Positions 28,261 to 30,609 of a DNA stretch of 64,000 nucleotides are shown here, one piece after another. Both the position numbers and the translations under genes were made by a program. The notes under the pieces are model-generated. The model saw nothing but the letters and a program-made list of their open reading frames with translations, did not search any database and had not been told where the DNA came from. The stretch lies in assembly GCA_016206785.1 (NCBI GenBank), contig JACQQV010000048.1, positions 1,889 through 65,888 on the forward strand. The letters are read 5' to 3'. The DNA is from Candidatus Omnitrophota bacterium (lineage in GTDB: Bacteria > Omnitrophota > Gorgyraeia > JACQQV01). Within the stretch, counting starts at the first letter, position 1. Every line of letters begins with the position of its first letter.

Positions 28261-29949
28261 TTGCCAAGAAGCGCTCCGGTTTCAAAAAAGCGTTTCCTCC
28301 ATTTTTCCCTCCTGGTTGCAGTCATTTTTTTATTCTACGCCAATATCCTTCCGAATCCTTTTGTCTGGGACGATCATTTCTTCATCCTTCAGAATGAGTT
28401 TATCCGGCACTGGAAAAATATTCCGCTCCTTTTTCAAAGCCCTTTCTTTAGCAGGACCCTGAAAGAAACCCGCTTTGAAGAAGCAGAGTACTATCGTCCC
28501 ATCGTCATGGTGTTGTATACGGTGGAGTATCCTCTCTGGGGTCTTAGCCCCCTCGGCTATCATCTTGTCAGTATCCTCCTTCACTGTTTCAATGCGTTTT
28601 GGGTCTATCTTCTGATCCAGCACCTTTTTCACAATGAAAGGATTTCTTTCGTGGGCTCCCTTCTTTTTGCCTCCCATCCTCTTCAGACCGAGGCGGTCTC
28701 TTACCTCCCGAGCCGCGCTGATCTTTTGGCCACCTTTTTTTGTTTGACCGCATTCCTTTTATCCCTTTCATCCAAAAAAATCTCTAAATGTTTCTCCCTT
28801 TTCTCGTTTGCTTTGGGCCTTCTTTCCAAGGAAACGGCGGTTGTTTTTCCCGCACTTCTTTTCCTCTTTGAGTTGTGCCGTCCCGTTCGTCCAAAAAAAT
28901 GGTTCTTGAGTCACTCCGCGTATTGGCTCCTCCTTTTCGGATACCTTGCCCTTCGCCTTTTTATTTTTCCTTATCGCATCGGTTCTTCCTTAAGCGGAGG
29001 CCCCGGACTTCTGCTTCGCGTTCTCTCGCTGGGACCTTTGATCTTCTCCTACCTTTCTCTTCTTATTTTTCCTTTTCCACTCCACTTGGAAAGAGCCGCT
29101 CCTTTTCAAACCGGGTTTTGGGAGATAGGAACGCTTGTGTGTATGGGGGTGGGGGCAATGCTTCTTGTGCTTGGGAGATTCTTTTGGAATACCAACAGGC
29201 TTCTTTTCTTTGGAGGGGCCTGGTTTTTGGTGGCACTCGTTCCCGTCTCAAACATCATTCCGATTTATCCCTCCATGGCGGAACATTACCTCTATCTCCC
29301 ATCGGTAGGATTTTTTGCCCTTCTTTCTTTTTACCTCTGCCGGTTTCGTAAAGTTCTTCTTTTTGCGCTCCTCGGCGTCCTGGCATGCTACGGGGTTTTA
29401 ATCGTTGGGCGGAATAGAGACTATTCCGATGAAATGAGGCTCTTTGAGCAGACGGTGGCTAGCGTTCCCAAGAGTCCCGGAGCCCACAACAATCTTGGAA
29501 GCGTCTATATTTCTCGGGGATATACGACGCTTGCACTCCGTGAGTTTAAGAAATCCCTATCTCTTAATCCGAATCAGCCGAGGGTCTGGGCCAATTTGGG
29601 AACGGCCTATCGGGAGATGAAACAATATGACAAATCGATCAAGTTTTTGAAAAAGGCCCTTAGGCAGGAGGGAGACAATTCGGTTTTCTGGAACAAATTA
29701 GGGATTGCCTACGCAGAGAGCGGAAGGGAAGAGGCCCCCTTTGCCTTTCAGGAGGCGATCCGCCTCGATCCGACCTATGGGGAGGCCTATTTTAATCTCG
29801 GGTCCTATTATTGGAATAAGGGTGAGTTCCCCAAGACCCTTTTTTACTGGGAAGAGGCCCTTCGGCAGAATCCCGGACACCCAGACCTCAAGGTTTGGCT
29901 CCCAGCCTTGAGGGAGAAATTGTCTAAAAAGGAAGACAGAAAGAGGTAG
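28261..29949 (+). CDS. Polytopic membrane GT-C-like (PMT_2/DUF1736-like) protein with C-terminal TPR repeats; MshN-like position
   Basis: The N-terminal half has 10 or more hydrophobic helices. The C-terminal TPR repeats include 'AHNNLGSVYISRGYTTLALREFKKSLSLNP' and 'YGEAYFNLGSYYWNKG'. The start is TTG. Confidence 0.6.
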   Translation: MPRSAPVSKKRFLHFSLLVAVIFLFYANILPNPFVWDDHFFILQNEFIRHWKNIPLLFQSPFFSRTLKETRFEEAEYYRPIVMVLYTVEYPLWGLSPLGYHLVSILLHCFNAFWVYLLIQHLFHNERISFVGSLLFASHPLQTEAVSYLPSRADLLATFFCLTAFLLSLSSKKISKCFSLFSFALGLLSKETAVVFPALLFLFELCRPVRPKKWFLSHSAYWLLLFGYLALRLFIFPYRIGSSLSGGPGLLLRVLSLGPLIFSYLSLLIFPFPLHLERAAPFQTGFWEIGTLVCMGVGAMLLVLGRFFWNTNRLLFFGGAWFLVALVPVSNIIPIYPSMAEHYLYLPSVGFFALLSFYLCRFRKVLLFALLGVLACYGVLIVGRNRDYSDEMRLFEQTVASVPKSPGAHNNLGSVYISRGYTTLALREFKKSLSLNPNQPRVWANLGTAYREMKQYDKSIKFLKKALRQEGDNSVFWNKLGIAYAESGREEAPFAFQEAIRLDPTYGEAYFNLGSYYWNKGEFPKTLFYWEEALRQNPGHPDLKVWLPALREKLSKKEDRKR

Positions 29950-30015
29950 TAGAAATTGTTATTTCTATCTTCTTACTAATCTTGGAGTTAATAAAAGTCC
30001 TTTGTGATTCAGCCA

Positions 30016-30044
30016 TTGACAAAACCGGTTCCTTATGATATAAT
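30016..30044 (+). promoter_or_regulatory. Perfect sigma70 consensus promoter TTGACA-17-TATAAT driving the major pilin gene
   Basis: The exact hexamers lie at 30016-30021 and 30039-30044, about 125 nt upstream of the pilin ATG. Confidence 0.55.
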
Positions 30045-30168
30045 TTGTACTTAGAATATGGGGGTCATGGACTTATTTATAGGGTTTATTGTTATTGTTT
30101 TCCCTACCGCAACATCCTACCGCATCAACACCCCCATTGTGGCAAGATGACAAGGAGGTGAAACAAAG

Positions 30169-30609
30169 ATGTTCAAACTCAATCGGAAAGGCTTCACCCT
30201 CGTCGAAATCATGATCGTCGTTGCAATCATAGCGTTACTGGCCGCGATCGCCATTCCCAACCTCTTAAGGGCCCGTCACAATGCGAATGAAGCATCTGCT
30301 ATCAGTGCTCTTAGGACACTCAGTACCGCGATGGAGAGTTTCCGTGCAGCCCAGACGCCACCGTCCTATCCTGCGAGCCTGGCAGTTTTGTCCAGCGCAA
30401 CGCCACCTTACATTGACGGCGCACTTGCGGGGGCGACAGCATCGAGTGCTGCAAAGCAGGGGTATTTTTACGCCTATACCTCAGGAGTGAATACGTATAG
30501 CGTGACGGGATCTCCTGCAGTCTCCGGTACGACAGGAACGCGGGTCTTTTTTGTGGACGAATCTGGGGTACTCCGACTGACCAACGCAACAGGGGCCCCT
30601 CTCGAATAA
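30169..30609 (+). CDS. Type IV (major) pilin with class III prepilin leader
   Basis: The leader is 'MFKLNRKG|FTLVEIMIVVAIIALLAAIAIPN'. The SD AGGAGGTG lies 8 nt upstream. The C-terminal half is Ser/Thr-rich. Confidence 0.85.
   Translation: MFKLNRKGFTLVEIMIVVAIIALLAAIAIPNLLRARHNANEASAISALRTLSTAMESFRAAQTPPSYPASLAVLSSATPPYIDGALAGATASSAAKQGYFYAYTSGVNTYSVTGSPAVSGTTGTRVFFVDESGVLRLTNATGAPLE

Follow-up and report, generated by a model that had tools for sequence, protein, structure and literature searches.

A GT-C-fold membrane protein with C-terminal TPR repeats, encoded between pilC and a pilin gene of an Omnitrophota bacterium, as a candidate pilin glycosyltransferase

The type IV pilus cluster of a Candidatus Omnitrophota bacterium includes a gene whose product joins a polytopic membrane domain of the glycosyltransferase C (GT-C) type to a C-terminal tetratricopeptide repeat (TPR) domain, and which is lodged between the gene for the platform protein PilC and that of the candidate major pilin. 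The DNA that we analyzed, hereafter the window, is a stretch of 64,000 nucleotides of contig JACQQV010000048.1 (assembly GCA_016206785.1, positions 1,889 to 65,888); coordinates given for its features are those of the window, and these features lie on its forward strand. The gene in question, referred to below as the GT-C/TPR gene, is an open reading frame (ORF) at 28261..29949 with a TTG start and a coding capacity of 562 amino acids (aa). We consider the odds slightly better than even (a probability of about 0.55) that its product is an inner-membrane GT-C enzyme of the TMTC-like family that O-glycosylates pilin. We favor this reading because related genes recur next to pilin genes in different gene orders, because the residues of the catalytic face are retained, and because there is a precedent in TfpW, a pilin glycosyltransferase of Pseudomonas aeruginosa. 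The source bacterium would then possess a glycosylated type IV pilus. The original prediction, which had proposed the protein as a candidate pilin glycosyltransferase, is supported at that level by the fold, the motifs, the conserved adjacency to pilin genes and the TfpW-like architecture.

Both the ORF and its two neighbors were found where they had been claimed to be. The GT-C/TPR gene starts 1 nucleotide (nt) past the stop codon of pilC (27054..28259; T2SSF, 5.4e-66; NCBIfam PilC, 1.6e-129) and stops 219 bp short of pilA1, the gene of the candidate major pilin. Its co-expression with pilC is a prediction strongly supported by this arrangement. The database entry identical to the 562-aa protein comes from a Candidatus Omnitrophica metagenome-assembled genome (MAG) and is named only "tetratricopeptide repeat protein."

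The membrane domain occupies residues 1 to 393 (28261..29439) and has 11 transmembrane helices with a cytoplasmic N terminus, as judged from AlphaFold2 (AF2) models, Foldseek matches and homologues. The AF2 model of the full-length protein has a predicted local distance difference test score (pLDDT) of 90.4 and a predicted TM-score (pTM) of 0.90, and that of the membrane domain, made up of 11 long helices, has values of 89.3 and 0.91. The membrane domain was modeled and searched by itself, since TPR proteins crowded out other matches when the full-length model was submitted to Foldseek. All of the top 31 matches to this domain in the PDB are GT-C enzymes (best E value, 1.1e-4), namely, structures of STT3/OST, Pmt4, ArnT, PglB, DPY19, Pmt1, EmbA/B, ALG6 and AftA, with PimE at rank 34. 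Over these 31 matches, the Foldseek probability is about 1.0 down to rank 21 and 0.90 to 1.0 below it, and the query-normalized TM-score ranges from 0.34 to 0.59, being at least 0.45 for most of the top 13. Structures of the PMT/ArnT type are represented by 9i5k, 5ezm, 5f15 and 6p25, the two ArnT entries (5ezm and 5f15) being among the best matches. The GT-C fold that had been proposed for the protein is thus shown by its structural model. At the sequence level, a phmmer search of the PDB sequences with the protein recovered TPR proteins only, and a profile built from the membrane-domain alignment recovered no match.

A search with the membrane half retrieved hundreds of homologues, many of which carry precomputed matches to PMT_2, PMT or TMTC_DUF1736 and several of which were named "protein O-mannosyl-transferase" by JGI. 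When 27 aligned membrane domains were scanned singly, 11 matched PMT_2 (PF13231; best E value, 1.8e-9), 3 matched TMTC_DUF1736 (PF08409; 1.8e-11) and 2 matched PMT. The Pfam matches of the homologues and the fold are two independent grounds on which the N-terminal half can be assigned as PMT_2/ArnT-like. The same label in the original prediction therefore stands with respect to polytopic nature, fold and homologues, though not with respect to a direct Pfam match to PMT_2 or DUF1736, which the protein itself lacks. Judging from its sequence motifs, the 562-aa protein is a member of the TMTC-like family, its membership at the profile level being transitive through the homologues. The family is very large: a profile search retrieved 147,259 cluster representatives at an E value of ≤1e-3 and 73,021 at ≤1e-30. 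Relatives with 27 to 31% identity are also present in MAGs labeled Woesearchaeota, Altiarchaeales and Methanosarcinales (L012, L014, L019, L049 and L074), and there is a partial match on a Haladaptatus plasmid (NZ_CP085304.1; 32% identity over 31% of the query). Either the family extends into the archaea or the bins labeled as archaeal are contaminated.

The motifs by which we place the protein in this family are predicted to lie on one side of the membrane. TMTC O-mannosyltransferases share a motif set comprising M1 (DD), M2, M3 (RxD), M4, M5 (DW) and M7 (ERxxY), of which the M4 residues have been proposed as phosphate and metal ligands (PMC7801869). The original prediction had made its case depend on an acidic motif, DD or DxD, in the first periplasmic loop; we found there a near-invariant putative catalytic pair, D37-D38 ("FVWDD," 28369..28374), directly after the first transmembrane helix (residues 9 to 29), which corresponds to M1 and to the DDX motif of TfpW. 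In alignments A1 and A2, D38 is invariant and D37 is at least 90% conserved, and all 37 tabulated proteins have D-D at these positions or, in 3 cases, D-E. The end of the same loop has R79-P80 of a "YYRP" motif (28495..28500), with P80 invariant and R79 at least 90% conserved; of the M2 sequence SHKSYRP, only the YRP part (Y78-R79-P80) is present. H101 and H108 are likewise invariant or near-invariant. Periplasmic loop 2 contains the segment HPLQTEAVSYLPSRAD (28675..28722), with H139, P140, E144 and R152-x-D154. Here, the "LLFASHPLQT" of the window protein corresponds to the "LLFAVHPIHT" of TMTC3, the conserved "HPLQTEAV" supplies H139-P140...E144, and R152-A-D154 matches M3. Loop 3 has K190-E191-T192 ("SKET," 28828..28836), equivalent to M4, KE(T/Q)xxT, with both K190 and E191 at least 90% conserved. 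In periplasmic loop 4, the equivalent of the DUF1736 region, Y264-x6-P271-F272 is followed by H275-L-E277 (29050..29091), with Y264 and P271 invariant. M5 (DW) reads here as H275-L-E277, so that the acidic residue is kept and the Trp is absent; among the 37 tabulated proteins, an acidic residue at position 277 is frequent but not universal. Finally, periplasmic loop 5 has a variant of M7, E341-H-Y-L-Y345 ("MAEHYLYLPS," 29281..29295), with E341 at least 90% conserved and Y345 invariant. The Tyr of ERxxY is kept in this E341-H342-x-x-Y345 arrangement and its Arg is replaced by His, the residue found at position 342 in most of the 37 proteins, with Arg forming the next-largest group.

The assignment of 11 transmembrane helices puts the N terminus and all Lys/Arg clusters on one side and every conserved polar motif, along with the TPR domain, on the other. 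We infer that the N terminus lies inside and that the TPR domain lies in the periplasm, the latter because the number of transmembrane helices is odd. This predicted arrangement is that of the TMTCs, PMT and TfpW. The model accordingly gives strong support to a periplasmic catalytic face built from the motifs of loops 1 to 5. The TPR domain itself (residues ~391 to 562; 29431..29946) is predicted to comprise 10 helices forming about five repeats. The C-terminal TPR repeats of the original prediction are borne out by Pfam matches over residues ~403 to 547 (TPR_17, 2.7e-23; TPR_2, 1.3e-22), and the PDB matches to this domain include a consensus TPR and the TPR of OGT.

Comparison with other genomes indicates how the gene is linked to those of pilins. 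The close orthologues examined (L001/L002, L003, L007 and L008/L009) have 52 to 62% identity to the window protein, and in all four loci the order pilC, GT-C/TPR, pilin is preserved. It is embedded in each case in the longer row GGDEF, PilT, MshEN, PilB, PilB, PilC, GT-C/TPR, pilin, pilin and, further on, PilM to PilQ. In these loci, the spacing between pilC and the GT-C/TPR gene is between -8 and +29 nt, and a gap of ~220 to 250 bp precedes the pilin gene. One of them, L001, has a second, full-length GT-C/TPR paralogue in tandem, in which the conserved E144 is replaced by Ala.

To go beyond close relatives, 80 loci of reference genomes with relatives at 25 to 35% identity were scanned for PilB, PilC, PilT and PilM and for prepilin leader motifs. 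Among the Omnitrophota, L029 has the order pilC, pilA, two GT-C/TPR genes, minor pilins and pilM; L041 has pilC, two pilA genes and, further on, GT-C/TPR, YfhO, GT2, a second GT-C/TPR and another pilA; and L042 has five pilin genes, about 3.7 kb upstream of its GT-C/TPR gene, with YfhO and GT2 in between. A locus from Planctomycetia (L082) has a pilin gene, two GT-C/TPR genes, a YfhO-like gene and pilM, and one from an uncultured bacterium (L066) has a pilin gene followed by two GT-C/TPR genes. In Thermodesulfobacteriota (L040), the GT-C/TPR gene lies between those of a PilS-like kinase and a pilin, followed by a Wzy_C gene (Wzy_C, 9.3e-21), and in Rokuibacteriota, it is found near a pilin gene (L060) or near pilC and pilM (L044). 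L029, L040, L041, L060, L066 and L082 each have a GT-C/TPR gene immediately adjacent to a pilin gene. The gap between the pilin and GT-C/TPR genes is about 20 to 280 bp in six of these distant loci. By a rough, uncalibrated estimate from the typical density of prepilin genes, well under one such adjacency would be expected per 80 loci.

The companions of the GT-C/TPR gene at the distant pilin-linked loci are glycosylation genes, namely, those coding for YfhO, GT2 and Wzy_C proteins. YfhO is a glycosyltransferase of the GT-C type whose sugar donors are lipid linked. The GT2 proteins from L041 and L042 most closely match the models for AglJ, dolichyl-phosphate hexose transferase, PpgS and ArnC. 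These gene neighborhoods suggest that YfhO, a GT2 resembling polyprenyl-phosphate-sugar synthases and the GT-C/TPR protein might constitute a multienzyme module for pilin glycosylation. A YfhO family protein and a GT2-methyltransferase fusion are encoded between the pilin and GT-C/TPR genes in L041 (5350-8996), L042 (3381-7031) and L082 (9001-11106). In L040 (5181-11352), a single pilin gene is flanked by two different kinds of candidate glycosylation enzyme, the GT-C/TPR protein and the O-antigen ligase-like Wzy_C protein. Tandem duplication of the GT-C/TPR gene is frequent at pilus loci (L001, 6425-9698; L029, 5551-9115; L082, 4944-8983; L066, 1424-4041; L024, 6818-10399).

The proposed acceptor is PilA1 (30169..30609; N_methyl, 4.2e-9), a 146-aa candidate major pilin with a PilA/GspG-type N terminus and no Cys, which is 77 to 81% identical to the pilins of L001 and L003 that are encoded at the equivalent position. 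It has a segment rich in Pro, Ala, Ser and Thr at residues ~60 to 125, and T90 and T122 do not vary across six related pilins. The Ser/Thr-rich string to which the original prediction had drawn attention, ASSAAKQGYFYAYTSGVNTYSVTGSPAVSGTTGT, is present, and Ser and Thr make up 20% of PilA1 against 11.7% ± 2.0% in 29 other window proteins; this enrichment is modest and shared by other pilins, and as evidence for glycosylation it is weak. The gene is preceded by a promoter, TTGACA-N17-TATAAT, with a TG extension (30016..30044), that matches the sigma-70 consensus at 12 of 12 positions and by the ribosome-binding site AAGGAGGTG, and it is followed by an intrinsic terminator (30635..30669) with a 15-bp stem containing 8 G-C pairs and a T tract. 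From these elements, pilA1 is predicted to be a single-gene transcription unit, and the possession of a consensus promoter and a terminator of its own fits a highly expressed major pilin. We also considered a regulatory RNA in the ~118-nt 5' untranslated region of pilA1 and found no support for it, since the only Rfam matches were chance ones to the terminator hairpin and the predicted folding does not exceed that of shuffled sequences (z-score, 0.24). A second possible acceptor is PilA2 (30689..31138; 149 aa; N_methyl, 2.5e-8), which has a conserved counterpart, likewise encoded second, in each of L001, L003 and L008.

On the basis of these observations, we consider the following mechanism the most likely. 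A GT2 enzyme, such as that encoded at 626..1351, would make a polyprenyl-phosphate-sugar donor on the cytoplasmic face of the membrane, and this donor would be flipped across it. The GT-C/TPR enzyme would take the single sugar from the polyprenyl phosphate, with its TPR domain capturing the membrane-anchored pilin (PilA1 and possibly PilA2 or minor pilins) before assembly, and would attach it to hydroxyl groups of Ser or Thr within the globular part of the pilin, which is rich in Pro, Ala, Ser and Thr, giving an O-glycosylated assembled pilus. As TfpW and TfpO suggest by analogy, such a glycan might aid pilin stability or mask the fiber from phages and other binders.

The candidate donor synthase belongs to the glycan locus noted in the original prediction, which is real and occupies about positions 1..19400 of the window, with genes coding for GT2, GT4 and GT9 glycosyltransferases, a GT-C enzyme of the PMT_2 family, an aminotransferase, methyltransferases, WbqC and PIG-L proteins and a WecA-like protein. 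The GT2 (626..1351; 241 aa; Glycos_transf_2, 7.2e-20), whose connection to the GT-C/TPR enzyme as the maker of a lipid-linked monosaccharide donor is putative, is the best match within the window to the pilin-linked GT2 of L041 and L042. Its NCBIfam matches (AglJ, 1.3e-32; dolichyl-phosphate hexose transferase, 1.4e-19; PpgS, 6.6e-9) all fall below the cutoffs. The gene overlaps the start of that of a second GT-C enzyme (1306..2958; 550 aa; PMT_2, 8.8e-11), and this pair (626-2958) resembles GtrB/GtrC or ArnC/ArnT and probably decorates the glycan of the surrounding locus. We also considered whether the pilus-linked GT-C protein is a paralogue of this PMT_2 gene product and rejected the idea, as the tblastn match between them is at chance level (E value, 1.6).

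Several observations weigh against pilin glycosylation by the GT-C/TPR protein. Residues 1 to 393 have no Pfam match even at an E value of ≤10 and thus lie below the detection of every Pfam GT-C model. At two positions, the catalytic face is unlike that of the TMTCs, with E277 in place of the Asp of DW and H342 where ERxxY has a strictly conserved Arg. A distance of 27 kb separates the GT-C/TPR gene from that of the candidate donor synthase, whose partner is another GT-C enzyme. Ser and Thr contents of 17 to 20% are also found in the second pilin and in the minor pilins, an enrichment typical of pilins in general. The precedent differs in its gene order, in that tfpW lies downstream of pilA, whereas the window gene lies upstream of the pilin gene and in the pilC unit. 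As for the family, 60 of the 80 reference loci have no pilus gene match, and most examined members of this huge family do not lie near pilus genes, so that membership alone is no indicator of a pilin substrate. Three distant homologues with 30 to 37% identity likewise lie in unrelated neighborhoods, and the family as a whole is not pilus specific. Further, the pilin-linked members do not form one clade in a crude neighbor-joining tree, which lacks support values and has an unreliable deep order; this pattern suggests either repeated recruitment to pilus loci or frequent loss of the linkage.

The best-surviving alternative, which we regard as unlikely, accepts an active protein O-glycosyltransferase and shifts its target from the major pilin to PilQ, PilN/O/P or the large PilX-like minor pilins, or else takes it as a broad-specificity envelope enzyme riding in the pilus operon. 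The placement of the gene in the transcription unit of pilC rather than that of the pilin is consistent with this, as are the many paralogues per genome, mostly not pilus linked (L028 and L052 lie on one contig), and the general use of TPR domains as protein binders. Among eukaryotic relatives, too, the targets are particular folded domains in many proteins (PMC7801869). However, in other genomes the homologue adjoins the pilin gene itself, at a distance of 20 to 280 bp, in loci where the order of the assembly genes varies, which points to pilin as the common partner, and TfpW provides a precedent for pilin as the acceptor.

It is still less probable that the protein is mainly structural, its periplasmic TPR domain serving as a pilus assembly or secretin-pilotin factor in the manner of PilF/PilW/Tgl, with transferase activity secondary or lost. 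No other TPR pilotin-like gene was seen in the pilus cluster, and NCBIfam detects a weak similarity to PilW (1.4e-16) and Tgl (2e-9). Yet these scores, far below the cutoffs, reflect the general resemblance among TPR proteins, the architecture of the protein is not that of a lipoprotein, and its TPR domain is tethered to the inner membrane, whereas PilF, PilW and Tgl are outer membrane lipoproteins. The retention of every family-invariant residue of the catalytic face further argues for selection on catalysis.

Equally improbable is a nonprotein acceptor, such as lipid A or the lipopolysaccharide core, an exopolysaccharide or a cell wall polymer, modified in the style of ArnT or Gtr/YfhO with donors from the upstream locus: ArnT is among the best structural matches, that locus is large and has a GT2/GT-C pair, and YfhO-type partners occur in related loci, but cyclic di-GMP (c-di-GMP) and pilus genes separate it from the GT-C/TPR gene, it has a GT-C enzyme of its own (1306..2958), the conserved neighbors are pilC and pilin genes rather than glycan genes, and a C-terminal TPR domain in this fold family goes with protein-directed enzymes (TMTC and TfpW).

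The pilus cluster surrounding the GT-C/TPR gene is complete and codirectional. Its order is HD, HAMP-GAF-GGDEF, PilT, MshEN, two PilB, PilC, GT-C/TPR, two pilins, minor pilins, two PilX-like proteins, PilM, PilN/O/P-size ORFs and PilQ. Upstream of pilC, the row comprises genes for PilT, a stand-alone MshEN protein and two PilB-like ATPases (22074..27050); downstream of the pilins, it comprises those for minor pilins, two PilX-like proteins, PilM, PilN/O/P-size ORFs and PilQ (31150..39777), with the PilQ secretin at 38179..39777. The segment at 19447-27050 codes for an HD_5 protein, a HAMP-GAF-GGDEF diguanylate cyclase, PilT, a 153-aa MshEN protein and two tandem PilB-like ATPases. The same gene order is found in L001, L003 and L007, and in orthologous loci both PilB-like ATPases carry an MshEN domain according to precomputed Pfam matches. 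The presence of GGDEF and MshEN genes ahead of the pilus cluster points to the control of pilus extension by c-di-GMP. The two large PilX/GspK-like minor pilins are paralogues of 495 and 510 aa encoded in tandem at 32490-35491, and the pair is missing from some orthologous loci (L003 and L008). The 2-kb segment at 28001-30000 has an AT skew of -0.23, against roughly -0.13 to +0.15 in other 2-kb segments, and a slightly lower GC content (0.479); the dip in skew is probably due to the T-rich codons for hydrophobic residues in the gene for the membrane protein.

Taken together, the gene is a TfpW-style, pilin-linked GT-C/TPR candidate from an uncultivated phylum, and the kind of system is already known. 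If our reading is correct, it would provide a concrete substrate, pilin, for one clade of a family of ~147,000 clusters whose bacterial functions are essentially uncharted, and it would tie the TMTC-like family to TfpW on the one hand and to the TMTC O-mannosyltransferases of animals on the other. A literature search found no paper mentioning TfpW and TMTC together, and the sole paper that it found combining Omnitrophota, glycosyltransferase and pilin is silent on pilin glycosylation. For the Omnitrophota, which are uncultivated, often ultrasmall and possibly host dependent, a glycosylated, c-di-GMP-controlled pilus would bear on attachment and on the evasion of phages. With regard to annotation, this case indicates that the label "tetratricopeptide repeat protein" can conceal a complete GT-C enzyme missed by Pfam. 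More broadly, and as a tentative proposal that we would not yet call probable, the bacterial TMTC-like GT-C/TPR branch might consist of protein O-glycosyltransferases repeatedly recruited to type IV pilus loci in four phyla or more (Omnitrophota, Planctomycetota, Thermodesulfobacteriota and Rokuibacteriota). In concert with a polyprenyl-phosphate-sugar synthase, and in some cases with YfhO, they would provide a widespread route of pilin O-glycosylation distinct from that of PglL/TfpO, with TfpW as one specialized member and the animal TMTC1-4 proteins as eukaryotic descendants.

Among known systems, several resemble the window protein in only some respects. The original prediction had placed it in an MshN-like position, an assignment that we reject because no profile match backs it. 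An identity with the PilF/PilW/Tgl pilotins also fails on scores (60.8 bits for PilW against a cutoff of 154 and 37.2 bits for Tgl against a cutoff of 225) and on architecture, these being small (~250 aa), TPR-only lipoproteins, whereas the window protein has 562 aa and an 11-helix membrane domain. The cyanobacterial Ogt (GT41) is, like our candidate, a TPR-bearing glycosyltransferase, and it is required for the glycosylation of PilA; however, it is a soluble GT-B enzyme of the cytoplasm, has N-terminal TPR repeats and a UDP-GlcNAc donor and is unrelated to the window protein. TfpO/PilO and PglL are closer in logic: they, too, are polytopic enzymes of the inner membrane, they draw on lipid-linked donors to O-glycosylate pilins in the periplasm, and the tfpO gene adjoins that of the pilin. 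They belong to the Wzy_C family, in contrast, and transfer whole oligosaccharides linked to undecaprenyl diphosphate. We reject a Wzy_C/PglL/TfpO identity for the 562-aa protein, in which no Wzy_C match was found by the same scan that recognizes the Wzy_C gene of L040. Of the precedents invoked by the original prediction, TfpW thus has the same architecture, while PglL and TfpO are of the Wzy_C type and their grouping with the GT-C enzymes is imprecise, TfpO and TfpW having been described as unrelated (PMC11841053).

The remaining comparisons lie within the GT-C fold. With the PMT, PMT_2 and ArnT enzymes (actinobacterial Pmt, yeast Pmt1/2/4 and ArnT), the window protein shares this fold, the acidic motif in loop 1 and the logic of a lipid-phosphate-monosaccharide donor; it differs in having neither the MIR domain of PMT nor a soluble C-terminal domain of the ArnT type and in having TPR repeats instead. 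TMTC1-4 are O-mannosyltransferases of the animal endoplasmic reticulum that use dolichyl-phosphate-mannose as the donor and cadherin domains as acceptors. They have in common with the window protein the 11-helix GT-C domain combined with a noncytoplasmic TPR domain and, in sequence, M1, part of M2, the "LLFAxHPxxT" segment, M3 and M4. The differences are its lack of a direct Pfam match, its variant M5 and M7 and its ~5 TPR repeats, compared to more in the TMTCs.

The closest known functional precedent, by analogy, is TfpW (AAM52060.1) of P. aeruginosa group IV (Pa5196/PA7), a pilin D-arabinofuranosyl transferase that uses decaprenyl-phosphate-D-arabinofuranose as the donor and builds oligomers. 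Genes of a DprE1/DprE2-type D-arabinofuranose pathway were not found among those window ORFs that were scanned with Pfam, and such genes may lie elsewhere in the genome. TfpW has 646 aa, compared to 562 aa here, and has an N terminus in the cytoplasm, 11 predicted transmembrane helices and a periplasmic C-terminal TPR domain, being best modeled on ArnT. It has an essential DDX motif in periplasmic loop 1 and a YX6PFX7P motif in periplasmic loop 4; the latter reads Y264-X6-P271-F272-X8-P281 in the window protein and is thus one residue off. Its gene adjoins pilA, and it is both necessary and sufficient for pilin glycosylation. Compared with TfpW as so described, the window protein has in common the GT-C fold, an N terminus directed inward, ~11 transmembrane helices, a DD(x) motif in loop 1, a C-terminal periplasmic TPR domain and a gene adjacent to that of a pilin.

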